Source: Clostridia bacterium | GTDB taxonomy: Bacteria; Bacillota; Clostridia; Oscillospirales; CAG-272 | DNA length: 64,000 nucleotides | NCBI GenBank assembly: GCA_017550315.1 | Contig: JAFZPN010000054.1 | Coordinates: 1,766-65,765, forward strand | Direction of reading: 5' to 3' | Part shown: piece after piece, positions 25,570-48,310 of the stretch | Layout of the letters: each line of letters opens with the position of its first letter | Numbering within the stretch: the first letter of the stretch is position 1 | Translations under genes and position numbers: made by a program | The notes under the pieces: generated by a model | The model's input: only the letters and a program-made list of their open reading frames with translations | Databases searched by the model: none | What the model was told of the DNA's origin: nothing

Positions 25570-25581
25570 CCGATCCCCTCC

Positions 25582-28236: not shown

Positions 28237-29265
28237 TCAGGATTCCCGTGCGGCGCGCGCCATCGCCTGCAGGTTCTCGAGCGGGATGTTCGGCGCGAGG
28301 TCGCATCCGGGCGCGAGGATGAATCCGCCGTAGGGCTTCATCGATTCACAGAGCGACTTGCTGATCGCGTATACCTCCTCGGCGCTTTTCGCCGCGAGGA
28401 TGTGCGCGGGACTGAGGTTGCCGAACAGGGCGCAGCGTCCCGCGGAATCGAGCTGCGCGCGCACCATGTTGATGGAATCGACCGAGAAGACGCTCATCCC
28501 CGCCCCGGCGACCGTCGCGACGAGCTTGTCCGTTTTGCCGCAGATGTGGATGAGATAATTCCGGCACTTCGGGGCGAGCCGCTCCATGACCTTGACGTCG
28601 GCGGGCAGGACGAAGTTCTCGAAATCCGCGGGCCGGATCAGATCGCCCGAGGCAGCGGGTTCGGGAACGGTGATGAGGTCGAGCCCGTTGTCCGTCAGAT
28701 CTTCGAGGTAGGCGATCACGATCTCGGCCGCGAAGTCGATGACCTTTTTGACGTCTTCCATTTCCCCGGTCAAGAGCTCCACCATGAAGTCCTCGACGCC
28801 GAGCATCTGGGCTGCCATCGTGAACGGACCGAAGAAACCGCCGCCGATCATGCATTCGTCCCCGACGAGGCGGCGCATCTCCCGCATCTGCACGAGGGTC
28901 CTCTGATAAAAATGCTCCTGCCGCATGTCGGCGATGACTTTCCCAACGTCGAAATTGTCGATATCTTCGAGCGAGGTGAGCGGGCGGGACAGGATCTCCG
29001 CGGAGAGGACGTTCATCTCCACACGCCCGCCCATGACTTCCATCATCGGCCACGCGGCGGCGCATCCGGAGGTCATGATCTCCGTGCCGATCTCGCGGTA
29101 GTCGCCGACAAGAAGCTCCGCGCCGGCATCCGGGAGGTCGAGCAGGCTTGCCATGGTCAGGCCGTGCCGCGCGGCGATCCACATCTGACCGTTCAGGACG
29201 GCGAACGGCGCGCGGTCTGTTTTCTCAAAATGAAGGGTCTTCAACACTCGTTCCTTGCTTGTCAC
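28237..29265 (-). CDS. Uroporphyrinogen decarboxylase / MtaA-CmuA methyltransferase family protein
   Basis: GPFTMA, IHICG, LFGNLSP, FILAPGCDL. Confidence 0.8.
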   Translation of the reverse strand: MTSKERVLKTLHFEKTDRAPFAVLNGQMWIAARHGLTMASLLDLPDAGAELLVGDYREIGTEIMTSGCAAAWPMMEVMGGRVEMNVLSAEILSRPLTSLEDIDNFDVGKVIADMRQEHFYQRTLVQMREMRRLVGDECMIGGGFFGPFTMAAQMLGVEDFMVELLTGEMEDVKKVIDFAAEIVIAYLEDLTDNGLDLITVPEPAASGDLIRPADFENFVLPADVKVMERLAPKCRNYLIHICGKTDKLVATVAGAGMSVFSVDSINMVRAQLDSAGRCALFGNLSPAHILAAKSAEEVYAISKSLCESMKPYGGFILAPGCDLAPNIPLENLQAMARAARES

Positions 29266-29315
29266 GTCAGGTTCCTTTCTCCTTTTTCGCTCGGAATGTT
29301 TTCGTGGGTCGGCGG

Positions 29316-30428
29316 TTATGTCATCCCGAAGGTCTTCTCCTTCAGGTCGAGGTAGTAGAGATAATTCTCCGGCGTGACGTCCGGCGGGCAGCGGTGATCG
29401 CAGAACGGGATGTATCCGCCGCGGGCGACGAGGGGTTCGAGCGTCTTCATATACGCCTTGATCTCGTCCTTCCCGGCGATCATTTTCATCTTGTCAAAGC
29501 CGCCCATGATGCGCAGATCCCTGCCGTATTCGGCGAAGAGCTCGCCCGGATGCGCGCAGGAATTGACCTCGAACGGGAACAGGCAGTTGATCCCCGCCTC
29601 GAGAAAGTACGGGAGCAGCGGGCGGACGTCGCCGTCGCAGTCCGTGTACCAGATATCGACGCCGTATCGGTGAAGGCGGTCCCCGATGCGCTTGTAGCAC
29701 GGGAAGACGACGGACCTGAAGAAATCCATCGGGACGAGGGGGCCGTTCTTGCAGCAGATGTCCTCCCAGCCGGAGGCAAAGTCGAAGTGATAGCGCGGCA
29801 GGACGGCGTCGAGATAGTCCTCCACGAGCTCGCAGCGGGTCTCCACGATGTCCGCGACCATCTCCGGATAGTCCGCAATGGCATAGGCGAGGCCCTCGAC
29901 GGTCAACAGATCGCGGACCTTTCCGATCATGGAGCCGCAGCTGATCCCCACCGGATAGGTCCTGTCGTCCGCGCAGATCTTGTCAAGCCGCTCGAAATCC
30001 GGCTTGCGGACCGCTGCGGCACGGTCGAAGCTGCGTTCTTTGAGGGCTTTCCAGTCCTCGGGCGTCTCGACCGCGCTGCCGAGATAGCGGGGAATCGACG
30101 AATGGCCGTCCTTCGGTACTTCCACGACCAGCCCTTCCGAGGTGGTCTTCACGACGGAATGCGCTTTGACCTCGAGGACCTTTTCCTCAAATCCCGGGGT
30201 CATGTCGTAATGCCCGCCGACGCCCGCCGGAGGCTCGAAGGCAAAGAAGCGGTCGGCTTCCCATTCGTTGTGGATGTTGTTCTCGAGGAAAATGTCCCAG
30301 GTCTGATAATTCTCAGCCCAGTAACCAAACTCCATGTTGACCGTCCGGTCGAACGGCCGGTAGTGCATCTGCGCGTTGAAGCGGTCGCGCTGCGTCATCG
30401 TCCCTTTCCAGGGCTTTCTCGGTTCCAT
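29316..30428 (-). CDS. Uroporphyrinogen decarboxylase family protein
   Basis: WEDICCKNGPL, DCDGDV, GGFDK, GGYIPFCDHRCPP; ATG 30428 after GAGGAG. Confidence 0.78.
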   Translation of the reverse strand: MEPRKPWKGTMTQRDRFNAQMHYRPFDRTVNMEFGYWAENYQTWDIFLENNIHNEWEADRFFAFEPPAGVGGHYDMTPGFEEKVLEVKAHSVVKTTSEGLVVEVPKDGHSSIPRYLGSAVETPEDWKALKERSFDRAAAVRKPDFERLDKICADDRTYPVGISCGSMIGKVRDLLTVEGLAYAIADYPEMVADIVETRCELVEDYLDAVLPRYHFDFASGWEDICCKNGPLVPMDFFRSVVFPCYKRIGDRLHRYGVDIWYTDCDGDVRPLLPYFLEAGINCLFPFEVNSCAHPGELFAEYGRDLRIMGGFDKMKMIAGKDEIKAYMKTLEPLVARGGYIPFCDHRCPPDVTPENYLYYLDLKEKTFGMT

Positions 30429-30579
30429 TTTCTCCTCTCCTCCGCGTGCTCGTCGTTTCCGGATCGTCTTCCGGGAGGACGGCGCTGTGTTCCATGCAAG
30501 TATAGCATATTCTTCCGCCGTTTGCAATCCCCCGTCCATCAAAAATCACGGTACCGCAGCCGATACCGTGATGATTGTT

Positions 30580-31744: not shown

Positions 31745-31773
31745 TTGATAACCGGCTTTATCTTTGATATAAT
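31745..31773 (+). promoter_or_regulatory. sigma-A promoter of the MATE-NRPS operon
   Basis: TTGATA-17 nt-TATAAT with extended -10 TG. Confidence 0.65.
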
Positions 31774-31880: not shown

Positions 31881-33212
31881 ATGGATTATCTGCATGACTC
31901 GCATCGCTCGATGTTCGCGAAGCTCCTGCCTTCCGCCATCGGCGCGATGCTCAGCGAGACGGTGGCCTCCCTGATCGACACGATCATCCTGAGCTACTAT
32001 CTCGGCCCGGATATGCTCTCGACCATCAGCATCTGCATGCCGATCTACATGTTCGTCAATACGCTCTCCATGCTGATCGTATCCGGCGGCGCGACCCTCT
32101 TCGCCCAATCCCTCGGACGGGAGGACAAAGAAGACGCGCAGCGGTATTATACCTGCAGCATCGTGCTGATGGTGCTGTGCGGCGCAATACTGACGGTCGG
32201 CGGCCTCGTCTTTACGAAGCAGATCATGTCCGCTCTCGGCGCGTCCGGCTCGGTTCTGGAACCGACTGTACAGTATGGCCGGGTGCTGTTTTCGTTCATG
32301 ATCCCGCTCTGCCTGTATCAGCAGCTCATGGTCTACGTCCGCTTTGACGGCGCGCCGATCCTCTCGCTGATCTCCACGGTCGTCTGCGCCGTGGTCAACC
32401 TGGTGCTCGACGTGCTCTTCGTCGGCGTATTCTTATGGGGTCCGGGCGGTGCGGCCCTTGCGACCTGTCTCGCCTACACCGTCGCGATGCTCATCAACGC
32501 CGCGCATCTTTTGCAGAAGAACAACGGCCTGATCTTCCGCCGGGGCAGCATGAGCGGAGCGCGCGTCGGACGGGTGCTCAAAACCGGGATCCCGCTCTCC
32601 GTCACGCAGCTCGGCATGGCGGTCGGCACGTCCCTCTTCAATATCCGCATCATGGATGTCGGCGGTCCGATGTACCTCGACGTATACGGCGTGATCACGC
32701 AGCTCTCCGTCGTCGCGATGGCGCTGTACGAGGGCATCGCGCAGGCCTGCCAGCCGATCCTCGCCGCCTGCTTCGGCGCGGGTGACCGGAAACGGACGGC
32801 ACAGACCATCCGCTACGGCTTCGTCATGGAAATCATCGCGATGACCTTCGCCACCGTGCTCTATATCTTCGGCGCGGGATTCGTGGCGAACCTCTTCTCG
32901 ATGCAGGAGGCCGAAATCCACGCAGCGGCGGTCGGCGCGATCCGGATCTACGCGCTGTCCCTGTTGTTCACCGGCTTCAATACCATCATCATCTATCACT
33001 TCCAGGTGAAGGAATACGAAATCCACGCGACCGGGATCTCGCTTCTTTCCGGCACGATCCTGCCCGTTGCGTTCCTGTATCTGCTGACGCTTCTGTTCAG
33101 CGTCCGAGGCATCTGGTGGTGCTATCTGATCGCGCAGGGACTCACCCTGATCCTGAGCGCGGTGCTCTATACCCGTGATAAACGCATGGATTCCCAAAGG
33201 AGGAGTATATGA
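31881..33212 (+). CDS. MATE family efflux transporter
   Basis: About 12 TM segments, VVNLVLDVLFV, GAALAT, QPILAACFGAG; stop overlaps the NRPS start (ATGA). Confidence 0.88.
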   Translation: MDYLHDSHRSMFAKLLPSAIGAMLSETVASLIDTIILSYYLGPDMLSTISICMPIYMFVNTLSMLIVSGGATLFAQSLGREDKEDAQRYYTCSIVLMVLCGAILTVGGLVFTKQIMSALGASGSVLEPTVQYGRVLFSFMIPLCLYQQLMVYVRFDGAPILSLISTVVCAVVNLVLDVLFVGVFLWGPGGAALATCLAYTVAMLINAAHLLQKNNGLIFRRGSMSGARVGRVLKTGIPLSVTQLGMAVGTSLFNIRIMDVGGPMYLDVYGVITQLSVVAMALYEGIAQACQPILAACFGAGDRKRTAQTIRYGFVMEIIAMTFATVLYIFGAGFVANLFSMQEAEIHAAAVGAIRIYALSLLFTGFNTIIIYHFQVKEYEIHATGISLLSGTILPVAFLYLLTLLFSVRGIWWCYLIAQGLTLILSAVLYTRDKRMDSQRRSI

Positions 33213-36200
33213 ACGAAGATCGAATCTTGACATGGTGGAAGGAGCGGCTCTCGGGGCTTGAGATCGATGTGTGCCCTGCCGTCGACTTCCCGGACAACGA
33301 GGAGGGCGGCGCTCTCACCTCTCTGACCGTCGCCGCGCCCGACACGGACCGCGACACCCTGACCGCGGCATTCGCCTATACGCTCGCGAAGTTCACCAGC
33401 CAGACCGAGAGTCTGTTCTGGATACGCGAAGGCGGGACGTGTCATCCGTTTTATGTTTCTTTCGATGAGACCGCGCCGGCGGGCGATTTCCGTGCTGCCG
33501 TGACCGCTCTGCGGGCGGATGCGTGTGAGCATCCGTATGCGGACGAAGCCGGGCTTGCCGAGGCCCTCGGGCTGAACCGGGAGCTTCTCCTGTCCTTCGA
33601 CGACGCAGCGCCCGATCCCGCGGGGGAATGGAAGCTCTGCCTCAGCCAGACGGACGGCGCGCTCACCCTTTTCTACCGGGAGGGCTGGTATCTCTTTGAG
33701 AATATGCGCCGCCTTGCCGAAACGGTCGTCACCGTCGCGAAGCAGCTCCCCGGAATCGGATGCCTGCGGGATCTGACGCTCATCGGCGAGGACGATCTTG
33801 CCCTGCTCGGGACCTTCCCGCACTGGGAGCTTCCGCCGTCCGCCGGATCGGTTCCGGAGATCCTGAAGCGCAGCTTTGAAAAATACCCGGACCGTCGGGC
33901 CGTCGTCTATGAGGGCGAGGCGCTGACCTACCGGGAGCTCGATAAAAAGACCGACGCGATCGCCGCGAAGCTCGCCGCGGAGGGGATCGGCAAGGGATCC
34001 GTGGTCTCCACGCTGCTGCCGCGCTGCAAATGGATGCCCGTGGTCGCCGTCGCGATCCTCAAAACCGGTGCGGCGTATCAGCCGCTCGATCCGTCCTATC
34101 CGCCGGAACGCTTAAACTTCATGGTGCAGGATTCGGGTGCGGAGCTGGTCATCGCGGATCGCGCGCTGCGGGACCTGATCGCGGAATACGACGGGCCGTT
34201 CCTCTATCTCGACGAGCTCGACGCGCTGCCGGACGCCGAACCGCTGAACCGGGAGATCTGCCCGGAGGATCCCTTCATTCTGCTGTACACCTCCGGCACG
34301 ACCGGCACCCCGAAGGGCGTCATCCTGCATCACGGGAACCTGGTCAACTTCATCGACTGGTACCTCCCGAAGTTCCGCCTGACGTCCGAGAGCCGGAGCG
34401 CGGCCTACGCCAGCTTCGGATTCGACGCGAACATGATGGACACCTATCCCACGCTCGCGGCGGGCGGTGAAATGCACATCCTGTCGGATGAGGTGCGCTT
34501 CGATCTGCGCGCCATCAACCGCTATTTCAACGAAAACGGCATCACCCACAGCTTCATGACCACGCAGGTGGGCCGCCAGTTCGCGCTCATGACCGACTGC
34601 AAGACCCTCCGGATCATGTCGATGGGCGGCGAAGCGCTCGTTCCCTTCGATCCGCCCGCCGGCATGGAGGTATATAACCTCTACGGTCCGACGGAGTGCA
34701 CGATCCTCTCCACGACATACCACATGACGAGCGATTCCAAGCGTCTGCCGATCGGGGTGCCGCTCAACAACACGCGGCTCTACGTGGCGGACAATTTCCA
34801 GCGTCTTCTCCCCGTCGGCGCGATGGGCGAGCTCCTCATCGCCGGGACGCAGGTCGGAACCGGGTATCTGAACCGGCCGGAGAAGACCGCCGAGGCGTTC
34901 ATCGCCAATCCCTTCACGGATGATCCCGCATACGCACGTCTATACCGGACCGGCGACATCGTCCGCTGGGGCAACGACGGCAACGTGGAATTCGTCGGCC
35001 GCCGCGACGGTCAGGTAAAAATCCGCGGCTTCCGGATCGAGATGACCGAGGTCGAACGCGTCCTGCGGGAATTCCCCGGCATCACCGACGCCACCGTGAT
35101 CGCACGGGACGCGCCTGCCGGCGGAAAGATGATCTGCGCTTACGTGGTGTCGCCCGAGACGGTGGACGTGAAGGCGCTCGAGCAGTTCATTCTCGAGCGC
35201 AAGCCGCCCTACATGGTGCCCGCGGTGACGATGCAGATCGAAAAGATCCCGCTCAACGTCAACAGCAAGGTGGACAAGCGCGCGCTGCCCGAACCCGTCT
35301 TTGCCGCGGACGAGACCAAAGAATCCGGTCCCCGCGCGAGAACAGCCCTCGAAGAAAAGCTCTACGGGATCCTTTCCTCCATTGTCGGATCGTCGGACTT
35401 CCCGGTGGAAAAGCCGCTCGAGGATCTCGGTCTGACGAGCATCTCCGCTCTGATGCTGGCGGTGGATATCGAAGAAGCGTTCGGGTACAGCCCCGACGTG
35501 GACGTGCTGGCCCGCGGTTCCCTCCTCTCGATCGAGAACGAGATCGTCGCGCACTTCATGGAGTCCCCCGCGGCGGAACAGAAGCCCGTCCGGGAATCGA
35601 ACGGACCGTGGCCGCTGACCCAGACCCAGCTCGGTATCTACTCCGCCTGCATGATGGACCCGGACAACGACGCGTATCAGCTTCCGTTCCTGTTCCGGGT
35701 GTCCGCGGATACCGACACCGACCGCCTGTGCCGCGCGCTCGAAGCCGCGATCGCCGCTCATCCCGCGCTCCGGTGCCGCATTATCCCCGACCGGGAGAGC
35801 ACCGCCGTCATGATCTCCACCGACGACGACTTCCGCGCCGAGACCGAAGAGATCACCGAAGAAGCGCTGGCAGCCCGCATGAAGGAGCACGTCCCGTTCG
35901 ATTTCGCGAACGATCCGCTCTACCGGGCGAAGGTCTACCGGACCGAAGAGGCGGTCTATCTCTACATCAACTTCCATCACATCATCTTTGACGGGACGTC
36001 CCTCGTGGTGTTCATGGAAGACCTCGAAAAGGCGTTCGAGGGCGAGGTCCCGGAGGGGGAGAAGTATTCCGCCTTCGATCTTGCGCTCGACGAACGCGAT
36101 GCCCGCGCCTCCCAGGCGTATGCCGATGCCAAGGCGACGTATGACGCCATTTTCAGCGGCGTGGACGTCAACAGCCTCCCCGATGCGGACTTCCCCGGCG

Positions 36201-39200
36201 GAGAACCGGAGGAGGAACACGCGCAGAAGCTGCTCCTCGGCGACGGGATGGCGGCGCGCGTGCAGAAGTGGTGCGCAGATTTAAAGGTGACGGAGAACGC
36301 GTTCTTCACTTTCGCGTTCGCCTGCACACTGGCCAAGACCACCGGACAGGACGAGGCCCTGTTCTGCAACATCTACAACGGCCGCCGCGATCCCCGCACC
36401 TTCCGTACCGTCGGGATGCTGGTCAAGACCTATCCCTTCCACATCCGCTTCACGGGTACCGAGACCCCGGCGGATATGGTCCGTGAGACGGCCAGACGGA
36501 TCCGTGACCTGACGGCGGGCGACCTGTATTCCTTTGCGGAGGTCAGCCGCGCCTACGATATCCGTCCGGACATCCTCTTCGCGTATCAGGGGAGCGCGTT
36601 CAACGAATTCACGGTTGCCGGTCAGACGAGCAAGAGCCTCGCGCAGGCCCTGAACAGCGTGCAGGCGCCGCTCTCCGTCGACGTGTTCCTCGAAGACGGG
36701 ACGTATTCCCTGAACGCGGAATACTATCCGGACCGCTACACCGGCGCGATGATCTCTTCCTTCCTCGAACTCTTCGCCCGGACCGCGCAGCAGCTCCTCG
36801 AAGTCCCGACGCTCGACGCCGTCGATCTCATGCACGAAAAAGGCCGGGCGCTTCTCGACAGCGCGAACAACACCGACTGGCCCGTGCCTTACCGTCCGGC
36901 GCACTGCCTGATGGAAGAGTCCGCCGCCGCCCATCCCGACCGGCTCGCGGTCATCACGCCGAGCGCGAAGCTGACCTACGCGGAGCTGAACGAGAACGCC
37001 AACCGCGTCGCGCACAGCCTCCTCGATCTCGGCGTGGGTCCGAACCGGATCGCCGCGCTGATGCTGCCCCGCTGTGCCGAGGTTTACATGGTGCGGCAGG
37101 GCATCCTGAAAGCGGGCGGCGCGTTCCTGTCCATCGATCCCGAATATCCCGACGACCGCGTCGAGGTCATGGCGGAGGATTCCGAATCCGTCGTGCTCAT
37201 CACGACCCGGGCGCTGATGGAAGAACGGCGTGCGTTCCTCTCGTCGCTGTCCTGCACAATCGCCGCCGTCGAGGATCTGCTTCTGAACGAGAATACCGCC
37301 AATCCGGACATCAACGTACCCGCGGACGCGCTGGCGTACTCCATCTTCACCTCCGGTTCCACCGGCAAGCCGAAGGGCGTGCTCCTGACACAGGGGAACC
37401 TCGTCAACTTCGTGAACGCCAATCCGAAGAACCCGGAGATCCTCGGCTACACGGAACGCGCGCATGTCTCGCTCGCCTTGGCCGCCATCACGTTCGACGT
37501 GTCGATCATGGAGGAATTCATCCCGCTCGCGAACGGCCTGACGATCTGCATGGCTACGGCCGAGGAGATCCACAATCCCGCCGCGCTCGCGAAGCTGATG
37601 ACGGAAAACCACGTGGATATGATGACCTGCACGCCGTCGTTTTTGACCAACTGCATCGGCCTCGCGGTGATGAAGCCGGCGCTTGAAAACGTGGTCTCCT
37701 ACGATTTCGGCGCAGAGGCATTCCCGGCGGCGCTGCTCCAGAAGATCCGCACCATCCGTCCGGACGCGTACATCATGAACGGCTACGGCCCGACCGAGGC
37801 GACCATCAGCTGCACCATGGACGTCGTCACGAACGCGAACGTTATCACCATCGGACGGCCCGCAAGCAACGTCAAGGCATACATCCTCGATCCGCAGGGC
37901 CACATCCTGCCGCCGCTCGTACCCGGGGAACTGGTGATCGCAGGCGCAGGCGTCGGACGCGGCTACGTGAAGCGCGACGATCTGACCGCCGAGAAATTCA
38001 TCACCGTGGAAGGCCTGCCCGCATACCGGACGGGCGACATCGCAGCATGGACGGCGGACGGAAAGATCCGCTTCAAGGGCCGCACGGACAACCAGGTCAA
38101 GCTGCGCGGTCTGCGCGTGGAACTCGGCGAGATCGAGAGCGCGATCAACGCGTGCGACGGCGTACTCACGAGCATCGTCATTATGACGGGCGAGGAGAAC
38201 AACCGCTTCCTCGCCGGATACTATACCGCCAGCCGCGAGATCAGCCCCGCGGAGCTCAAGGCGGAGATTGCAAAGACCCTGACCGCCTACATGGTGCCGG
38301 GGGTCCTCCTGCAGCTCGATCAGATGCCGCTGACCGCGAACGGCAAGATCGACAAGAAGAAGCTGCCGAAGGTGGAATACACGCCGGCTGCGGAGGAATA
38401 CGTCGCGCCCGCGAACGCCGTGGAAGAGGACTTCTGCGGATGGTTCGCGGAGGTGCTCAACATGGACCGCGTCAGTGCGGAGGGCAATTTCTTCGAGCTG
38501 GGCGGCACTTCCCTCTCCGCCGCCGTCATCGCGCTGAACGCCGCCGACCGCGGGTATCCGATCGTCTATGCCGACGTCTTCAAGGCGCAGACGCCGCGTG
38601 AGCTCGCCGCGCTTGCCGCCGGTACGGAACCGGCAAAGCAAACCGGGAGCGCGCAGGACGACCTGAAGGGCTTCGACGATGCGACGCTGGAGCTCTCCCA
38701 CAATACGGTCGACCATCTGCCCGGGCTGACGCGGACTTCCGTCGGGAATCTGCTGCTGACCGGCGCGACCGGCTTCCTCGGCATCCACCTCCTGCGCGAA
38801 TTCCTCGAGAACAGCACGAGCAACGTGATCTGTCTCCTGCGGGGAGATGCGCCGGAGAAGCACCTGAGGACGCTTTACTTCTACTACTTCGACCAGTCGC
38901 TCGATCCCTATTTCGAGAGCGGACGCGTCACCGTCGTGCCTGGCGACATCACCGACCGCGCATCCCTCGATGCGGTGAAGGCCATGCCGTTCGATACGCT
39001 CATCAACTGCGCCGCGCTCGTGAAGCACTTCGTCCACGACGACAGTCTCGAGAAGATCAACTACCGCGGTGTCGAAAACCTCATCGCGCTCTGCGAGGAA
39101 ACCGGCCGCCGCCTGATCCAGACCTCCACCGTCAGCGTGGCGGGCGAAGGACTCGACGGCGAACCTCCGCGCGACTGGGTGCTGACCGAGGACGCGCTCT

Positions 39201-39820
39201 ACAACGGCCAGCTCCTGGATAACGAATACGCCCTGACGAAATTCAAGGCGGAGCGGGCAGTGCTCGAAGCTGTCGGCCGCGGCGTGGACGCAAAGGTCAT
39301 GCGGCTCGGCAACCTGATGGGCCGCGCATCGGACGGCGAATTCCAGGCGAACTTCCGCAGCAACGCCTTCATCCGTTCGCTGGCCAGCTACAAGGCCATC
39401 GGCGCCGTTCCCTATTCCGTGATGAACATGGGGACCGACTTCTCCGAAATCGACATGACCGCCCGCGCGATCCTGCTTCTCGCCGGGACGGACCGTGAAT
39501 TCACCGTGTTCCATCCCATGAACAACCACACGGTCACCTATGCCGACATCGTGTACGCCATGCGGGAATACGGCTTCTCGGTCGAGACGCTGGAGGAAGA
39601 CGCGTTCGAGCGGCGCATGGCGGAAGCGGGCGACACATCCGGCGCGCTCATCGCGTATCAGAGCCGCGAAGGCAGCGCACGCCGCTACGAACTCGGCGCG
39701 GACTGCGCTTTCACCACGTCCGCCCTCTACCGGCTCGGCTTCAAATGGCCCGTATCCGGGGAAAAGTATATCGTACAAATGCTGAAAGCGCTGGATGAAC
39801 TCATCATGTTTGAAGAGTGA
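33209..39820 (+). CDS. Two-module nonribosomal peptide synthetase, (degenerate C)-A-T-C-A-T-R with terminal thioester reductase
   Basis: A1: YTSGTTGTPKG, YGPTE, YRTGD. T1: LGLTS. C: HHIIFDG. A2: FTSGSTGKPKG, YGPTE, YRTGD. T2: LGGTS. R: TGATGFLG and YALTK. Confidence 0.93.
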   Translation: MNEDRILTWWKERLSGLEIDVCPAVDFPDNEEGGALTSLTVAAPDTDRDTLTAAFAYTLAKFTSQTESLFWIREGGTCHPFYVSFDETAPAGDFRAAVTALRADACEHPYADEAGLAEALGLNRELLLSFDDAAPDPAGEWKLCLSQTDGALTLFYREGWYLFENMRRLAETVVTVAKQLPGIGCLRDLTLIGEDDLALLGTFPHWELPPSAGSVPEILKRSFEKYPDRRAVVYEGEALTYRELDKKTDAIAAKLAAEGIGKGSVVSTLLPRCKWMPVVAVAILKTGAAYQPLDPSYPPERLNFMVQDSGAELVIADRALRDLIAEYDGPFLYLDELDALPDAEPLNREICPEDPFILLYTSGTTGTPKGVILHHGNLVNFIDWYLPKFRLTSESRSAAYASFGFDANMMDTYPTLAAGGEMHILSDEVRFDLRAINRYFNENGITHSFMTTQVGRQFALMTDCKTLRIMSMGGEALVPFDPPAGMEVYNLYGPTECTILSTTYHMTSDSKRLPIGVPLNNTRLYVADNFQRLLPVGAMGELLIAGTQVGTGYLNRPEKTAEAFIANPFTDDPAYARLYRTGDIVRWGNDGNVEFVGRRDGQVKIRGFRIEMTEVERVLREFPGITDATVIARDAPAGGKMICAYVVSPETVDVKALEQFILERKPPYMVPAVTMQIEKIPLNVNSKVDKRALPEPVFAADETKESGPRARTALEEKLYGILSSIVGSSDFPVEKPLEDLGLTSISALMLAVDIEEAFGYSPDVDVLARGSLLSIENEIVAHFMESPAAEQKPVRESNGPWPLTQTQLGIYSACMMDPDNDAYQLPFLFRVSADTDTDRLCRALEAAIAAHPALRCRIIPDRESTAVMISTDDDFRAETEEITEEALAARMKEHVPFDFANDPLYRAKVYRTEEAVYLYINFHHIIFDGTSLVVFMEDLEKAFEGEVPEGEKYSAFDLALDERDARASQAYADAKATYDAIFSGVDVNSLPDADFPGGEPEEEHAQKLLLGDGMAARVQKWCADLKVTENAFFTFAFACTLAKTTGQDEALFCNIYNGRRDPRTFRTVGMLVKTYPFHIRFTGTETPADMVRETARRIRDLTAGDLYSFAEVSRAYDIRPDILFAYQGSAFNEFTVAGQTSKSLAQALNSVQAPLSVDVFLEDGTYSLNAEYYPDRYTGAMISSFLELFARTAQQLLEVPTLDAVDLMHEKGRALLDSANNTDWPVPYRPAHCLMEESAAAHPDRLAVITPSAKLTYAELNENANRVAHSLLDLGVGPNRIAALMLPRCAEVYMVRQGILKAGGAFLSIDPEYPDDRVEVMAEDSESVVLITTRALMEERRAFLSSLSCTIAAVEDLLLNENTANPDINVPADALAYSIFTSGSTGKPKGVLLTQGNLVNFVNANPKNPEILGYTERAHVSLALAAITFDVSIMEEFIPLANGLTICMATAEEIHNPAALAKLMTENHVDMMTCTPSFLTNCIGLAVMKPALENVVSYDFGAEAFPAALLQKIRTIRPDAYIMNGYGPTEATISCTMDVVTNANVITIGRPASNVKAYILDPQGHILPPLVPGELVIAGAGVGRGYVKRDDLTAEKFITVEGLPAYRTGDIAAWTADGKIRFKGRTDNQVKLRGLRVELGEIESAINACDGVLTSIVIMTGEENNRFLAGYYTASREISPAELKAEIAKTLTAYMVPGVLLQLDQMPLTANGKIDKKKLPKVEYTPAAEEYVAPANAVEEDFCGWFAEVLNMDRVSAEGNFFELGGTSLSAAVIALNAADRGYPIVYADVFKAQTPRELAALAAGTEPAKQTGSAQDDLKGFDDATLELSHNTVDHLPGLTRTSVGNLLLTGATGFLGIHLLREFLENSTSNVICLLRGDAPEKHLRTLYFYYFDQSLDPYFESGRVTVVPGDITDRASLDAVKAMPFDTLINCAALVKHFVHDDSLEKINYRGVENLIALCEETGRRLIQTSTVSVAGEGLDGEPPRDWVLTEDALYNGQLLDNEYALTKFKAERAVLEAVGRGVDAKVMRLGNLMGRASDGEFQANFRSNAFIRSLASYKAIGAVPYSVMNMGTDFSEIDMTARAILLLAGTDREFTVFHPMNNHTVTYADIVYAMREYGFSVETLEEDAFERRMAEAGDTSGALIAYQSREGSARRYELGADCAFTTSALYRLGFKWPVSGEKYIVQMLKALDELIMFEE

Positions 39821-39856
39821 ACCGGCCGACAGGAATCACCAACAGGAGGATTTGAC

Positions 39857-40147
39857 ATGACCATCGAAAAGAACGTATGCGAAAACGCCGCCGAGATAAA
39901 GCTCTCGGGATGGCTCGACACCCAGACCGCCCCGGAGCTCGACGCGGAGATCAGCGCGCTCGGGGAGGAGATCACCGCCCTGACGCTGGATTTTGAGAAG
40001 CTCGAATACATCTCTTCCGCCGGACTGCGCCTGATCGTCGCAGCATACAAGAAGATGAACGGCGCCCTGACGCTTCGGAATGTTTCCGACGAGATCATGA
40101 GCGTGATCAGGATGACTGGTTTAGACAAGCGGATCACCATCGCATGA
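39857..40147 (+). CDS. STAS-domain anti-sigma factor antagonist (RsbV/SpoIIAA-like)
   Basis: LSGWLDT, LDFEKLEYISSAGLR (phospho-acceptor Ser motif), MTGL. Confidence 0.9.
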   Translation: MTIEKNVCENAAEIKLSGWLDTQTAPELDAEISALGEEITALTLDFEKLEYISSAGLRLIVAAYKKMNGALTLRNVSDEIMSVIRMTGLDKRITIA

Positions 40148-42102
40148 ACAAACGATCGATCCGACGCTGGATCACGCTGTGCTTCACCGTGATCCTGATC
40201 CTCTCCCTCGCGGTGACGGCGGCGTGGAACTACTACCACACCTATTCGCACATCCTCGAGGAGAGCAGAGACGCCGCGGAAAGCTGCGCGAGCCTCGTCC
40301 GGTATTCCCTCGACTCGTGGGACATCGACGCCCTGATGCACGCGTCTGACGACGAACAGTACCGGCAGGAGCGGAGCACGCTGCGGGCGCTTTCTCGGAG
40401 CTTTGACTTTGAATATCTGTATATCTACACCGTTGACCCGGAGACAGAGGTCCGTCATTTCCTCTTCTGCGTCGCCAGCGACGACGACAAGGAAAACGTC
40501 GTGCTGCGCGAGCGGTATCTCGGCGCGGTGGCCGACGAACCGCTCGACAAGTGGGAAAAAGCGCTGCTCGCCGGGGAACGCGAGATGCAGATGGGCAAGG
40601 TTTCCACGCAGTACGGCGACGATATCACCTGGCTCGTGCCGTATACGGACGGCGACGGCCCCCTGCTTGCCGTGATCGGGATGGACCACAGCATTGCGGT
40701 GGAGAACGCGAAGATCCTGAAGGACTTCCTCTTCGCGCTCATCCCCGTCGTGCTGTCGCTGACGATGGGTCTGTTGGTCCTGCTGATCCTGCTGCGGCGG
40801 CGGATCCTGCGGCCGATCCACGCGCTGTCGGAGAGCATGAGCCGCTTTGCCCGGGACAGCAGCGTGAAGCCCGAACCGATCGGGATCTGCACGCAGGATG
40901 AGATCGGGGAGATCGCCGCTTCCTACGAGAAAATGACAAGCGACATCGTCGCGTATGTCAACAACATCGAAACCCTGACCAAGGAACGCGTCGAGACCAA
41001 CGTTCAGCTCGACGTTGCCCGCCGGATCCAGTACGGGCTGGTGCCGGAGAAGACCGCCCTCGACGGGGACGGCTTCACGCTCCGCGCCATGACCCAGCCA
41101 GCCAAGGCGGTCGGCGGGGATTTCTACGACTGCTTCCGGCGGGATGATAACAAGGTCTGCGCGGTGCTCGGCGATGTGTCGGGCAAGGGGATTTCCGCCG
41201 CGATCTTCATGGCGATGGCGAAAACCATGATCCACGAAAAGCTCATGGCCGGACTCAGCCCGTCGGAGACCCTGAATCAGGTCAACGACGCGCTCTGCGC
41301 CCAAAACCCCGAGGGACTGTTCGCCACGGCGTTCGCGGTCGTGCTGGATCCCGTGTCCGGCCGGATGTGCTATGCCAACGCCGGTCACACCCCGCCCGTT
41401 CTGATCGGCGAGGTAAGCCGTTTCCTGCATCCGGACAGCGGCATCGCGCTCGGGCTCTTTGAAGACGCGGGAATCGTCGACGGATCGCTCGATCTGTTGC
41501 CCGGCGAGGGGATCCTGCTCTACACGGACGGCGTGACGGAAGCGGTCAGTCCGGAGCGCATGCTGTTCGGCGAGGCCCGGCTGCTCAAAGAACTCGCACA
41601 CTTCCCCGCTTCCCCGGATGCGGCACAGGAATCGATCCGCACGGTCAAGGAGGCGGTCGAGCGCTTCACGGAAGGCGGCGAACCCTTTGACGACACGGCG
41701 ATCCTCGCCCTGTTCCGGACCGCCGGGGACGCCTGGAAACCGATCCCCGTGGCGCTCTCCTCCTTTAACGAGGTGAAGAAAGCGGTCTTTGCCGAGATCG
41801 GAGAGACGGCAGAGGCGCGGAAGATCCTCCTGGCCTGCGACGAGACGCTTACGAACATCGTCAGCTACTCCGGCGCATCCGAGCTGGCGTATTGCTGTAC
41901 AAAGGAGGGGGACACCCTCCGGATCGGATTCCGCGACAACGGCACGGCCTTTGATCCGACCGCGCCGCGGACTATGGAAACGGATTTTGATATGCTCGAC
42001 ATGGGCGGAATGGGGATCGGCATCGTCCGGGAGACCGCCTCCTCGATGGAATATGCGCGGAGGGACGACCGGAACGTGCTGTTCCTCTGCTTCCGTCTGT
42101 GA
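40144..42102 (+). CDS. Membrane sensor: TM, extracytoplasmic domain, TM, HAMP, SpoIIE/RsbU PP2C phosphatase and C-terminal RsbW-like HATPase domain
   Basis: QDEIGEIA (HAMP); VGGDFYD, GDVSGKG, NAGH, YTDGVTEA, DDTAIL (PP2C); DETLTNIVSY, DNGTAFDP, GGMGIGIV (GHKL boxes). Confidence 0.9.
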   Translation: MNKRSIRRWITLCFTVILILSLAVTAAWNYYHTYSHILEESRDAAESCASLVRYSLDSWDIDALMHASDDEQYRQERSTLRALSRSFDFEYLYIYTVDPETEVRHFLFCVASDDDKENVVLRERYLGAVADEPLDKWEKALLAGEREMQMGKVSTQYGDDITWLVPYTDGDGPLLAVIGMDHSIAVENAKILKDFLFALIPVVLSLTMGLLVLLILLRRRILRPIHALSESMSRFARDSSVKPEPIGICTQDEIGEIAASYEKMTSDIVAYVNNIETLTKERVETNVQLDVARRIQYGLVPEKTALDGDGFTLRAMTQPAKAVGGDFYDCFRRDDNKVCAVLGDVSGKGISAAIFMAMAKTMIHEKLMAGLSPSETLNQVNDALCAQNPEGLFATAFAVVLDPVSGRMCYANAGHTPPVLIGEVSRFLHPDSGIALGLFEDAGIVDGSLDLLPGEGILLYTDGVTEAVSPERMLFGEARLLKELAHFPASPDAAQESIRTVKEAVERFTEGGEPFDDTAILALFRTAGDAWKPIPVALSSFNEVKKAVFAEIGETAEARKILLACDETLTNIVSYSGASELAYCCTKEGDTLRIGFRDNGTAFDPTAPRTMETDFDMLDMGGMGIGIVRETASSMEYARRDDRNVLFLCFRL

Positions 42103-42119
42103 AAGGAAAGGAGATCCCC

Positions 42120-42626
42120 GTGCAGAAAACGCTCTTCAGGCTCTTTGCGTCCCTCGCTCTGCTCTCCCTGCTTCTCCCGGCGTGCGCGGGCGGGACAGAG
42201 AGCACCGCCGAATGGGAGGGGCGTACCCTCGTCGGCATTGAGTACGGCGAGATCAACGGGATGACGTGGGGCGACGATTTCGAGATCCGCCTGACGGAGG
42301 ACACGGTCATCTATGCGCGGCGGTTTTCCCGTCTGACACACCGGTATATCACATACGAAGGTCGGGCACTGTCCGCGAAGCGCTGGCAGGATATCGCCGG
42401 GGCCGTGATCGCGCTCATGCCCTCGCTGGAAGAAGTGCCTGTGGCTCCGGATGACATGCAGATCCCATTTGCGACGGATGGCGGAAGCGCTTCCGCGGTC
42501 GTCGGATCGGGCTTTTGGCTCATCTGGCGGGCATCGGACGGCACGACGGAGCGGATCCGGTATTATGTCCCGTCCGACGAGGGATTCGACGCGCTGCGGG
42601 CCCTGCTCGTGAAAACCGCGCGGTGA
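42120..42626 (+). CDS. Hypothetical lipoprotein, last gene of the NRPS operon
   Basis: AAGGAG RBS, GTG start, signal peptide ending LLPAC. Confidence 0.65.
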   Translation: MQKTLFRLFASLALLSLLLPACAGGTESTAEWEGRTLVGIEYGEINGMTWGDDFEIRLTEDTVIYARRFSRLTHRYITYEGRALSAKRWQDIAGAVIALMPSLEEVPVAPDDMQIPFATDGGSASAVVGSGFWLIWRASDGTTERIRYYVPSDEGFDALRALLVKTAR

Positions 42627-42650: not shown

Positions 42651-42691
42651 AAAGCACCCCGGAGTCAATGGCTCGCGGGGTGTTTGCTTTT
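42651..42691. terminator. Bidirectional terminator
   Basis: aaagCACCCCGGAGTCA...TGGCTCGCGGGGTGtttgctttt between convergent genes. Confidence 0.65.
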
Positions 42692-43975: not shown

Positions 43976-45454
43976 TCAGAACTGGAAATAGATGAAATTC
44001 GTCGCGTTGTAATCCGAACCCCAGACGCCGAAGACGAGGATCGCAAGGATCGCGCCGATGTAGACGACCCAGCGGAAATACAGCGGCTGGCGCTCGATCT
44101 TCGCGCTGATCGTCGGTCTGCACCGCGTATAGACGCCGACGGCAAAGAGGATCAGAAGCCCGACGAGGAGCAGACGGAATTCCCGCTCCCCGAGGCCGCA
44201 GGTATAGAGGCTCCCGTCGAAAAGGATCCACGGGTTGAACGTCCCGGCGATGCTCCGGAGTAAGCTCACGGCGTGGCGGATCCCGTTCGCGCGGAAGAAG
44301 AGCCAGGTGAAATCGATGAGGAGGAAGGTCCCGACCGTCTTCACGCAGCGCGAGGCGAAGGTCGGCGGCCTCTTTTTGCGCTTTTCGGCGAGATGCGAGA
44401 AGCAGTCCTCAAGGATCTGGAACACGCCGTTGATCCCGCCCCAGAGGACGTAGGACCAGCGCGCGCCGTGCCAGAGACCGCTCAGAAGAAATACGATCAG
44501 GATATTGCGGTATTTGACGAGTCTTCCCTTCCGGCTGCCGCCGAGGGGGATATACACGTAATCGACGAACCAGGTGTTGAGCGTGACGTGCCACCGCTTC
44601 CAAAATTCGTGGATCGAGGTCGAGAGGTACGGCGTCTCGAAGTTGTTCACGAGCCGGATCCCGAGCATTTCCGCGGCGCCGAGCGCGATGGTGGAATACC
44701 CGGCAAAGTCGCAGTAGATCTGGAAGGCGAAGAGGAACGTCGCTATCACGATGAACATGCCGGGGTACTTTTCAGGGGAGCCGTAGACGGCGTTCACGAA
44801 GATCGCCGCGCGGTCCGCGATGACCATTTTCATGAAATATCCCCACAGCATCACGACAAAGCCGTGCCGCGCCGCTTCATAGGTGGGCCGGGGCAGTTCC
44901 CTGAGCTGGGACATAAGGTTCTCCGAGCGCTCGATCGGGCCGGCGACGAGCTGCGGGAAGAACGAGACGAAGAGGGCGTACTGCAGGAGGTTCTTCTCCG
45001 CGGGCACTGTCCGGCGGTACACGTCGATCATGTAGCCGATCGTCTGGAAGGTATAGAACGAAATGCCGACGGGCAGGATCGGATCCCAGGCGGGCGTCAG
45101 CGCCGTGATCCCGATACGGGAGAGAACGGCGGTGAGCGTGGAGCAGGCAAAGCCGAAGTACTTGAAGAGGAAGAGCACGGAGAGGTTCAAGACGATCCCC
45201 GTCACGAGGATCGCGCGCTCCCGCTTTCCCGGTGCGTCGGATCCCTCTTTCCGCGCCGCATCGATCAGGCGGGCGCAGCCGTAGGTGAGGAGCGTGGAGA
45301 AGAGGATCAGGACGATGTACCGGGGGTTCCAGGACATATAGAAAAAATAGCTGCACGCCAAAAGCCACGGGGCCTTGGCTTTCCGCGGCAGCACATGGAA
45401 ACATATCAGCGCGATGGGGAAAAACAGAACAAAGCGAAACGAATTGAAGAGCAT
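43976..45454 (-). CDS. MBOAT O-acyltransferase (second copy)
   Basis: LPVGISFYTFQ, FFPQLVAGP, FWKRWH, GLWHGA, C-terminal FIYFQF. Confidence 0.92.
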   Translation of the reverse strand: MLFNSFRFVLFFPIALICFHVLPRKAKAPWLLACSYFFYMSWNPRYIVLILFSTLLTYGCARLIDAARKEGSDAPGKRERAILVTGIVLNLSVLFLFKYFGFACSTLTAVLSRIGITALTPAWDPILPVGISFYTFQTIGYMIDVYRRTVPAEKNLLQYALFVSFFPQLVAGPIERSENLMSQLRELPRPTYEAARHGFVVMLWGYFMKMVIADRAAIFVNAVYGSPEKYPGMFIVIATFLFAFQIYCDFAGYSTIALGAAEMLGIRLVNNFETPYLSTSIHEFWKRWHVTLNTWFVDYVYIPLGGSRKGRLVKYRNILIVFLLSGLWHGARWSYVLWGGINGVFQILEDCFSHLAEKRKKRPPTFASRCVKTVGTFLLIDFTWLFFRANGIRHAVSLLRSIAGTFNPWILFDGSLYTCGLGEREFRLLLVGLLILFAVGVYTRCRPTISAKIERQPLYFRWVVYIGAILAILVFGVWGSDYNATNFIYFQF

Positions 45455-45562
45455 GGCATTCTCCGCCTGCGTGGACCGGCGCGCCGTTCTGCCGGATCGG
45501 GTATAGTCCGGTCGAATCCGCGCCGTTTTTGACGGTTTTGGGGGCAACGTGTCACCGCCCTG

Positions 45563-45700
45563 ATTATACCACAACCGCATCGGATATGCAAGAGCGATTT
45601 CCGCGGGCATAAAAAGCCCCGGAAGACTGGACGGAAAGCCTTCCGGGGATGGAGATTATTGATGTTCGGCCAGCCAGATTCCCACGCGGGACTGGATGTT
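45563..45700 (-). repeat. Copy 1 of a diverged direct repeat: lipoprotein 3' end, terminator hairpin and TTGCAT-17-TATAAT promoter
   Basis: attataccacaa...atatgcaagagc...tttccgcgggca.aaaaagccccggaagac...aagccttccgggg...acgcgggactggat, shared with 48171-48310. Confidence 0.85.
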
Positions 45701-48127: not shown

Positions 48128-48170
48128 CGGATACCCCACGCAAACCTGCCGTTTGTACAATCTTACAATC

Positions 48171-48310
48171 ATTATACCACAATCTACTCTAATATGCAAG
48201 AGCAATTTTCCGCGGGCAGAAAAAAGCCCCGGAAGACCTCAGGGGGAAGCCTTCCGGGGTGTTGATTATCTCTGTTCCGCGAGCCAAATCGACACGCGGG
48301 ACTGGATCTT
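48171..48310 (-). repeat. Copy 2 of the diverged direct repeat (gene end, terminator, promoter)
   Basis: Same blocks as 45563-45700; TTGCAT-17-TATAAT at 48199-48171. Confidence 0.85.

Follow-up and report, generated by a model that had tools for sequence, protein, structure and literature searches.

Introduction

An NRPS neighbourhood with phosphatase, antagonist and MatE genes is already in print, because Leahy et al. (2010; PMC2812497) described one in the methanogenic archaeon M. ruminantium M1. In the portion of that report drawn on here, a two-module nonribosomal peptide synthetase (NRPS), mru0068, lies among two serine phosphatases, an anti-sigma factor antagonist and a MatE pump in the cluster mru0066-mru0071, and an accessory cluster, mru0512-0516, comprises a phosphopantetheinyl transferase (PPTase), a phosphatase, an antagonist and an anti-sigma serine/threonine kinase. 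The same portion proposes that these genes serve environment sensing, regulation of NRPS expression and export, and that they came from bacteria by horizontal transfer. Here we analyze a bacterial operon of related content at positions 31881-42626 of a stretch of 64,000 nucleotides (hereafter, the window) from the Clostridia bacterium assembly GCA_017550315.1, contig JAFZPN010000054.1, a metagenome-assembled genome (MAG) that is 85% complete and has a G+C content of about 62%. The operon encodes a MATE transporter (P0001), an NRPS ending in a thioester reductase (R) domain (P0002), a single-domain STAS protein (P0003), a membrane sensor with phosphatase and kinase domains (P0004) and a lipoprotein-like product (P0005). 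We propose, with belief and doubt evenly balanced, that the STAS protein and the sensor form a partner-switching module dedicated to the NRPS, in which the release domain of this enzyme, rather than a sigma factor, is the partner that is switched.

Partner switching with outputs other than sigma factors has precedents. The small switch protein SiaC of the Pseudomonas aeruginosa SiaABCD system is the substrate of a kinase and of a membrane phosphatase of the HAMP-PP2C type. When unphosphorylated, it binds and activates an enzyme of the same operon, a diguanylate cyclase; SiaC is not known to belong to the Pfam STAS family. SypE of Vibrio fischeri is a cytoplasmic protein with the domain order kinase-REC-PP2C, its input being the central receiver. 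Within a locus for polysaccharide biosynthesis, the RsbW-type kinase and the PP2C phosphatase of this one protein set the serine phosphorylation of the STAS protein SypA, of which the unphosphorylated form is active and acts on an unknown non-sigma target, according to the account excerpted here (PMC8256260). NRPSs that make dipeptide aldehydes have been assigned to gut Clostridia (Guo et al. 2017, as cited in the relevant passage of PMC10794557).

The original prediction, made from the window sequence alone, held that no characterized system has this architecture. As regards characterization the claim stands, none having been found in the literature searched; as regards the architecture it does not, since the pertinent part of Leahy et al. 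(2010) describes it. The literature retrieved for partner switching or STAS proteins together with NRPSs consisted of that report and an unrelated sigma-factor review, with no later characterization. Anti-sigma factors, STAS proteins and phosphatases are not mentioned in the structural paper on Mru_0351, the other NRPS of M. ruminantium (PMC8024701), and the main text of a survey of rumen biosynthetic gene clusters (PMC8241843) contains no STAS, anti-sigma, SpoIIE, pyrazinone, aldehyde or reductase.

Conservation of the linkage

Searches with the sensor returned 15 loci from a scan of one genome per species and 21 from a metagenome scan, 36 loci in all. At 29 of these the sensor is at least 37% identical to P0004: 19 lie beside an R-terminated NRPS gene, nine are cut short by contig ends and cannot be judged, and one has no NRPS gene. 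A STAS gene adjoins the sensor gene in 26 of the 29. The original prediction had made recurrence in other genomes its own test, and the outcome is clear, with NRPS-R, STAS and PP2C(-HATPase) genes standing together in 19 of the 20 judgeable loci. This is not a count of near-identical sequences: no pair among the 22 full-length or near-full-length sensors reaches 90% identity, and they fall into 10 groups at 55% identity, with the linkage present in eight, unjudgeable in one and absent in one. Within the same genus, a P0004 orthologue was found in only two of 36 species (G021, 84% identity; G020, 70%), in both cases in the order NRPS-STAS-sensor seen in the window.

The order of genes within the unit varies. 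The orders observed are NRPS-STAS-sensor, NRPS-STAS-PPTase-sensor, PPTase-STAS-sensor-NRPS, STAS-sensor-MATE-NRPS and a convergent form, and 11 of the 29 loci have an Sfp-type PPTase gene between the STAS and sensor genes or next to them (assigned by Pfam in three and by tblastn in the others). The flanking genes are unrelated between loci (GH2, helicase, SLH protein, arylsulfotransferase, dicarboxylate symporter), and no gene family beyond NRPS, STAS, sensor, PPTase and MATE is common to the related loci. MATE had no match in eight of the ten linked loci with a complete NRPS gene (L036, L039, L043, L092, L094, L095, L100 and L101), some of which lie on truncated contigs. The lipoprotein P0005, which had been counted as part of the unit, drops out, since tblastn matched it at none of the 36 loci. 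Depositors labeled the MAGs carrying the unit as Clostridia, Ruminococcus, Lachnospiraceae, Oscillospiraceae, Spirochaetales and Eggerthellaceae, labels of MAG bins that may be wrong, and most of these MAGs derive from ruminants. Of the seven loci below 37% identity, L044 (35%) is linked, in the convergent form, and the other six are distant or partial matches without an NRPS cluster, three of them Desulfosarcina-type loci with STAS only; at L104 the sole NRPS match is a weak A-domain-like one about 8 kb from the sensor (E 8e-5). The linkage of NRPS, STAS and sensor genes is robustly conserved.

Two Oscillospiraceae MAGs each carry two paralogous STAS-sensor pairs, 75-84% identical (L038 and L041 in one MAG, L040 and L042 in the other). 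L038 and L041 each lie downstream of an NRPS gene, and the contigs of L040 and L042 begin at or just before the STAS gene.

Approached from the NRPS, the picture is narrower. An even sample of the class comprised 400 scored genomes, of which 33, the window's own included, had an R-domain match at E <= 1e-20; among the 29 loci returned for other genomes of the class, none had a STAS or sensor gene within 1.5 kb of the R domain. When wider stretches were inspected for the nine closest relatives of the window NRPS, partner-switching parts were found in four and not in five. The parts take several forms. L086 has the order STAS-MATE-NRPS and reaches the contig end, and in G088 a split set of PP2C, HATPase_c_2 and STAS genes is divergent from PPTase-MATE-NRPS. 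In L080 and L082, a MATE protein with a fused C-terminal HATPase_c_2 domain directly follows the NRPS, with no STAS match in the 20-kb stretch. In L044, such a fusion is directly followed by STAS and is convergent with a separate HATPase_c_2 gene and a PP2C gene. These exporter-kinase fusions, joining MATE to an RsbW-type domain, are 587-619 aa long and stand directly after homologous R-terminated NRPS genes (L044:12930-14789, L080:6925-8688 and L082:8220-9983; -); we know of no earlier description of such proteins. Since four of the nine closest relatives have the parts and five lack them, with the fusion form of L044 in addition, the association is confined to part of the NRPS family, where it recurs in fused, split and exporter-fused forms.

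The switch protein and its sensor

P0003 (39857..40147; 96 aa) matches Pfam STAS at 48 bits (cut-off 22.6) and the anti-sigma factor antagonist superfamily TIGR00377 at 64.5 bits (cut-off 53.45). Its predicted phospho-acceptor, Ser54 (40016-40018), aligns with the first serine of the DSSG motif in the SpoIIAA structure 1AUZ, which we take to be the phospho-acceptor Ser58 of that protein. All 26 sequences compared have both Ser53 and Ser54.

P0004 (40144..42102; 652 aa) matches Pfam HAMP, SpoIIE and HATPase_c_2. Two transmembrane (TM) segments, placed by eye from the translation (TM1, aa 9-31; TM2, aa 195-217), enclose an extracytoplasmic domain and are followed by HAMP (aa 216-265), PP2C/SpoIIE (aa 334-523) and HATPase_c_2 (aa 553-648). 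The phosphatase domain scores 161.8 bits in Pfam, and D326, D344, D462, D516 and D517, presumably the metal ligands, are invariant in 12 of 12 sequences. The kinase domain scores 39.3 bits (cut-off 27.4); the N, G1 and G2 boxes of BceS have their aligned counterparts in its N571, D598-x-G600 and GGMGIG, which orthologues retain. From these features, we infer bifunctional control of Ser54 by P0004.

The extracytoplasmic domain (aa 32-194; 40237-40725) has no Cache match in Pfam and models as a Cache/PDC small-ligand fold. The structure model has a pLDDT of 86.2 and a pTM of 0.85 and consists of a long N-terminal helix followed by a PAS-like sheet, as in solved Cache/PDC domains. Foldseek returned 38 PDB matches at E <= 0.001, from 4.7e-5, with TM scores up to 0.69, among them the Cache/PDC domains of Tlp3, Htc10, a formate chemoreceptor, WalK, DctB and CitA. 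This domain diverges faster than the rest of the protein, with only 24-35% identity to that of the window in 18 of 21 other sensors; Y73, R77, Y95, E138 and G158 are nearly invariant. The sensor family itself is large, with more than 120 sequence clusters listed at 45-56% identity, all of the same architecture and named only SpoIIE-family or RsbU phosphatases.

PP2C genes with about 31% identity to P0004 occur at no fewer than two other places in the same genome (G000:C99:36683-38621 and G000:C111:6200-9212). A separate HATPase_c_2 gene adjoins the PP2C gene on C99 and lies about 1.3 kb from it on C111, so that both look like split partner-switching sets.

The reductase domain as a candidate output

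No sigma-factor family was found among ten ORFs (open reading frames) scanned around the window operon. Since these ORFs offer no sigma factor, the related loci have no further family in common, the operon has a sigma-70-like promoter and the hosts are distantly related, the target of the switch is to be expected inside the unit. The linked NRPSs have two or three modules and, by provisional GrsA numbering, share a DAMF... first-type pocket and vary in the other adenylation domain, yet all of them terminate in an R domain; such constancy amid varied modules and pockets fits a regulator that recognizes the release domain rather than one product.

The complex of STAS with the didomain of the second thiolation domain and the reductase domain (T2-R) was predicted, each input being an alignment of orthologues. 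T2 was included because a solved complex of the YchM STAS domain with an acyl carrier protein exists (PMC3340395, in the part cited). The interface score ipSAE was 0.85, 0.86 and 0.86 in three runs, and none of three controls exceeded 0.00. In the calibration, the mark used is attained by 58 of 80 solved complexes and by two of 110 mismatched pairs, figures that are only approximate here because our own alignments were supplied. At least 98% of contacts agree between the runs, and the partner pLDDT is at least 91. The best-defined contacts link construct residues 166-170, corresponding to NRPS aa 1891-1895 with an invariant Y-Y-F, to the STAS stretch 51-55 with its Ser53 and Ser54; others involve construct residues 319-325 and 469-474. 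The predicted docking site on the R domain comprises NRPS aa 1881-1897, 2044-2050 and 2194-2199. Contact between STAS and the carrier protein was discarded as a candidate, as no T2 residue is in the predicted interface.

Comparison with the Mru_0351 structure locates this site. Construct residues 326 and 328, directly before which the contacts at 319-325 end, align with T4032 and A4034 of Mru_0351, and these hydrogen-bond the phosphopantetheine arm, as the consulted section of the structural paper states (PMC8024701). Because its contacts adjoin these positions, the predicted STAS site abuts the cofactor entry; in the model it includes neither the carrier-docking helix-turn-helix nor the gating loop.

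On the strength of the modeled interface, we infer that STAS binds the reductase domain. The STAS face involved is probably the one that binds SpoIIAB-type kinases; if so, kinase and reductase binding would be mutually exclusive and phosphorylation of Ser54 would break both. No solved complex of a STAS protein with a reductase is known to us. The alternative that the original prediction had placed second, direct action of STAS on the NRPS, gains in-silico support from this contrast of 0.86 with 0.00 and from the position of Ser54 at the predicted interface.

These features suggest the following model. The operon would be a self-contained, horizontally mobile biosynthetic unit in which the R-terminated NRPS makes a dipeptide aldehyde and the MATE pump exports it. 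P0004 would sense an extracytoplasmic small molecule through its Cache/PDC-like domain, and HAMP would relay the signal, shifting the balance between the PP2C phosphatase and the RsbW-type serine kinase, both acting on STAS Ser54. Unphosphorylated STAS would dock on the terminal reductase domain by its Ser54-bearing face, and phosphorylation of Ser54 should release it. The reductase domain would thus take the place held by the sigma factor in classical systems, and reductive release of a reactive aldehyde would depend on an outside signal, whether docking activates or inhibits. A more specific form of the model, which we advance tentatively and with somewhat more doubt than confidence, is that the assembly line has in STAS a trans-acting subunit, switched by phosphorylation and seated on the R domain by the phosphopantetheine entry, that aldehyde release is cued through the Cache sensor, and that the whole is a portable cassette of gut and rumen anaerobes and apparently also of a methanogen.

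Observations weighing against the model

A number of observations weigh against a dedicated switch on the reductase domain. For five of the nine NRPSs closest to that of the window, the roughly 10 kb downstream and the up to roughly 15 kb upstream contain neither a STAS nor a PP2C or kinase gene, so that the NRPS family works without the module. A sensor acting in trans was considered for these NRPSs and rejected, as their genomes contain only sensor paralogues 28-33% identical. Conversely, a full-length sensor orthologue with 48% identity (L097:2200-4254) stands alone, without STAS or NRPS, among genes for a pullulanase, a racemase and an HD-GGDEF protein.

The structural prediction has weaknesses of its own. 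The complex score expresses how confident the model itself is. Close NRPS relatives without partner-switching genes nearby conserve the R-domain residues of the predicted interface (Y/F-Y-F, E..N-F) to the same degree; a signature separating linked from unlinked NRPSs was sought at this interface and discarded, because the residues are conserved in both groups. Covariation between STAS and the R domain is not visible either, the STAS face being nearly invariant.

The HATPase_c_2 domain of P0004 is divergent; a single-sequence search of the PDB yields only BceS (E 0.018). Two sensors, L034:5006-6601 and L039:7841-9430, end after the PP2C domain, with no separate HATPase_c_2 gene seen nearby, and a third (L037:10001-11892) is split over two reading frames at about 10630, by either a frameshift or an error of MAG assembly.

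Three RNA-library runs contain only 5-6% of the sampled words, and short contigs cover the operon in parts. These contigs, mostly 90-95% alike, cover parts of the NRPS, STAS and sensor genes, and one of 265 nt matches 39761-40023, where the NRPS gene ends and the STAS gene begins, with zero differences. Such contigs may derive from DNA and cannot prove a single transcript, so that they are no evidence of co-transcription, and the gaps between them are meaningless.

Alternative explanations

The ectodomain raises the question of what is sensed. In an autoinducer loop, the MATE-exported NRPS product would be bound by the Cache-like ectodomain of P0004, and STAS phosphorylation would feed back on the pathway or on other targets. 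This possibility, which we consider unlikely, is compatible with switching of the reductase domain and differs only in the identity of the signal. One operon does hold the making, exporting and sensing parts, the ectodomain is predicted to have the fold of small-ligand receptors, and its fast divergence (24-35% identity in 18 of 21) could track differences between products. Yet Y73, R77, Y95, E138 and G158 remain near-invariant though the NRPSs differ in module number and in the pocket for the second residue, MATE is not found in every linked locus (many contigs being truncated), and Cache domains bind many common gut metabolites, the Foldseek matches including receptors for amino acids, formate, purines and carboxylates.

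The HATPase_c_2 domain belongs to the RsbW/SpoIIAB family and STAS scores above the TIGR00377 cut-off, as would be expected if the module worked in the classical, transcriptional way: the kinase domain of P0004 would hold an unlinked sigma factor, and dephosphorylated STAS would displace it, the targets possibly including the operon. The further split sets on C99 and C111 would agree with this, and the archaeal counterpart was read in the cited portion of Leahy et al. (2010) as 'regulating NRPS expression' (PMC2812497). Against it stand the lack of a sigma-factor family among the ten ORFs and of any further family common to the related loci, the near-consensus sigma-70-type promoter of the operon, and the fact that the kinase domain may instead be fused to MATE. 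Moreover, because the unit occurs in MAGs labeled from Clostridia to Spirochaetales and Eggerthellaceae, an unlinked host sigma factor would be needed in each host. Transcriptional switching therefore seems to us improbable as well.

The fusions of MATE with HATPase_c_2 beside homologous NRPSs in L044, L080 and L082, and the STAS gene directly downstream of the fusion in L044, would suit a role of STAS in export, acting on MATE by analogy with the cytoplasmic STAS domains of SLC26/SulP transporters. We regard this as highly doubtful, given that the window MATE (443 aa) has no extra domain, that L080 and L082 show no STAS match in their 20-kb stretches and that MATE is unmatched in eight of the ten linked loci with a complete NRPS gene, truncated contigs among them. 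Chance or permissive adjacency of a common signaling pair and a common, functionally unlinked NRPS is scarcely credible: STAS, PP2C and RsbW-type genes are multi-copy in these genomes and many R-terminated NRPSs lack them (none of the 29 class-wide loci has them within 1.5 kb of the R domain), but the linkage holds in 19 of 20 judgeable loci down to 37% sensor identity, through rearranged orders and unrelated flanks, with the PPTase gene interleaved and with independent fusion and split variants beside homologous NRPSs. Switching of the reductase domain is the reading that we retain.

The assembly line and its expected product

P0002 (33209..39820; 2203 aa) matches two AMP-binding, two PP-binding and one Condensation family in Pfam, with NAD_binding_4 at its C-terminus. 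The predicted order adenylation-thiolation-condensation-adenylation-thiolation-reductase (A-T-C-A-T-R) is borne out by Pfam, with one addition. The first about 215 residues (33209..33853) have no Pfam match; in BLASTP they align with positions 184-301 of the protein's own condensation domain (E 4e-4), and NRPS relatives with full starter condensation domains align across the same stretch. Because the match is to the C-terminal half of the domain, the N-terminal 215 aa look like a truncated condensation-domain remnant.

Adenylation domain 1 covers about aa 216-700 (33854..35308; TIGR01733 at aa 240-630, AMP-binding_C at aa 614-687), its top PDB match being the A domain of LgrA, and is followed by thiolation domain 1 at about aa 705-790 (35321..35578, approximate boundaries; Pfam PP-binding, GLTS motif). 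The condensation domain (aa 801-1202; 35609..36814) matches Pfam at E 1.8e-49 and carries its HHxxxDG motif as HHIIFDG. Adenylation domain 2 spans aa 1236-1720 (36914..38368; Pfam AMP-binding at aa 1236-1586, DltA-type models at aa 1235-1721) and thiolation domain 2 aa 1746-1802 (38444..38614; Pfam PP-binding), and the terminal thioester reductase domain lies at aa 1847-2203 (38747..39817; Pfam NAD_binding_4). The R domain has the motifs of a competent enzyme, namely the NAD(P)H-binding glycine motif and the Tyr/Lys pair; GATGFLG and Y-x-x-x-K, together with the GG(T)S serine of T2, are invariant in 15 of 15 aligned T2-R sequences. The closest solved structures are the peptidyl carrier protein-reductase (PCP-R) didomain of Mru_0351 (6VTJ, E 4.9e-66) and then the R domain of AusA (4F6C, 1.7e-37). 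The AusA model NF047350 is the top NCBIfam match of the whole NRPS, at 1219.2 bits against an equivalog cut-off of 2500.

From domain order only, the expected product would be a dipeptide aldehyde, cyclizing to a dihydropyrazinone or pyrazinone. Pocket positions were taken from a MAFFT alignment with GrsA numbering (1AMU is only 17th among the PDB matches), and the resulting provisional strings, DAMFMMLIL for A1 and DVMTYFGIS for A2, correspond to no code that we recognize.

Operon boundaries and neighborhood

The ORF list and translations place all five operon ORFs on the + strand, as are the other operon features located here. A sigma-70-type promoter (31745..31773), TTGATA-17 nt-TATAAT with a TG extension, has 11 of 12 consensus matches; as the scan found five promoter-like sites where shuffled sequences gave 3.0 +/- 1.8, such a site is weak evidence on its own. 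P0001 (31881..33212; 443 aa) matches Pfam MatE at E 3.6e-34 and several NCBIfam MATE models, each below its equivalog cut-off. Direct reading of the sequence shows ATGA overlaps at the MATE/NRPS and STAS/sensor junctions, and the 36 nt between NRPS and STAS contain an AGGAGG-type ribosome-binding site. P0005 (42120..42626) has an L-P-A-C lipobox and no family in Pfam or NCBIfam; although its longest frame (175 aa) opens at 42099, the GTG at 42120 is the more likely start, preceded as it is by an AAAGGAG ribosome-binding site. In the Atlas it falls among 'hypothetical protein' clusters, with a single DUF6438 lead at rank 23. A terminator-like hairpin followed by a T-rich run (42651..42691) is common to the operon and a convergent gene ending at 42706; the segment 42640-42700 folds at -27.2 kcal/mol, and the pattern scan missed the hairpin because its loop exceeds 8 nt. 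The layout first read from the sequence, one promoter, five co-oriented genes joined in part by ATGA overlaps and one terminator, is upheld by ORFs, Pfam and junction reading, as is the gene order MATE, NRPS, STAS, membrane PP2C-HATPase and lipoprotein, for which Pfam and the lipobox suffice.

The neighbors described here lie on the - strand. Two paralogous ABC exporters in tandem, 729 and 722 aa long (23380-27750), stand some 4 kb upstream of the operon; the one scanned has a C39 peptidase domain, which suggests a locus for export of a bacteriocin or of a ribosomally synthesized and post-translationally modified peptide (RiPP). Between these and the operon are two adjoining URO-D-family ORFs (28237-30542; uroporphyrinogen decarboxylase or methyltransferase-like), the second a weak match to the family. 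Convergent with the operon is an MBOAT-family acyltransferase gene (43976-45610), after which come two large paralogues of 849 and 778 aa with weak solute-binding-protein and Reg_prop matches (45656-50602).

Significance

To our knowledge, the control of nonribosomal peptide synthesis is understood almost wholly at the level of transcription, and a signal-dependent protein switch on the release domain has been described for no NRPS. If the model is true, partner-switching systems gain a new class of output. The module is common and its hosts are gut and rumen organisms, and control by the module could explain why such clusters are silent or poorly expressed in other hosts. Peptide aldehydes of such gut organisms are of interest as protease inhibitors (relevant passage of PMC10794557), and the archaeal counterpart has been discussed, in the portions cited, in connection with the control of methanogens (PMC2812497, PMC8024701). 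Beyond what was in print in 2010, the present analysis shows how widespread the association is, describes the fusion of Cache, HAMP, PP2C and kinase in one sensor as well as the fusions of exporter and kinase, and predicts a contact of STAS with the reductase at the phosphoserine.

Comparison with described systems

The cluster of M. ruminantium, as set out in the description available, resembles the window operon in combining an NRPS with serine phosphatases, an anti-sigma factor antagonist and MatE, and it is the PCP-R didomain of the other NRPS of that organism, Mru_0351 (6VTJ), that is the closest solved structure to the window R domain. The two were compared by description only, and on that level they differ in that the archaeal parts are separate genes, whereas the window has PP2C and kinase in one membrane protein, C-terminal to its Cache-HAMP sensor part. 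The 2010 account, in the portion cited, is one of annotation, with no mechanism or test.

As to the assembly line, the window NRPS shares with AusA, the aureusimine/phevalin synthetase, the order A-T-C-A-T-R, homology of the R domain (4F6C) and the expected release of an aldehyde. It differs in falling far under the AusA equivalog cut-off, in its extra N-terminal condensation-domain remnant and in adenylation-domain pocket residues that match no nameable code. We know of no partner-switching genes described for AusAB.

As to the module, the RsbU/RsbV/RsbW and SpoIIE/SpoIIAA/SpoIIAB systems have in common with it the position of the STAS phosphoserine, a SpoIIE-type PP2C phosphatase and a HATPase_c_2 kinase. 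The window module differs from them in lacking a co-encoded sigma factor, in carrying kinase and phosphatase on a single membrane protein and in lying inside an NRPS cluster. The likeness to SypE/SypA extends to kinase and PP2C on one polypeptide, an adjoining STAS gene (26 of 29 loci) and a biosynthetic locus. P0004 is, in contrast to SypE, a membrane protein with a TM-Cache-TM-HAMP input, the order PP2C-kinase and no Response_reg match, and the pathway here is that of an NRPS rather than a polysaccharide. The logic of SiaABCD is, by analogy, the one proposed here for STAS and the reductase domain; P0004 is not a SiaA equivalog, because it scores 53.4 bits against the SiaA model NF038263, whose cut-off is 700. 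P0004 would thus work like the SypE and SiaA systems and is a member of neither.

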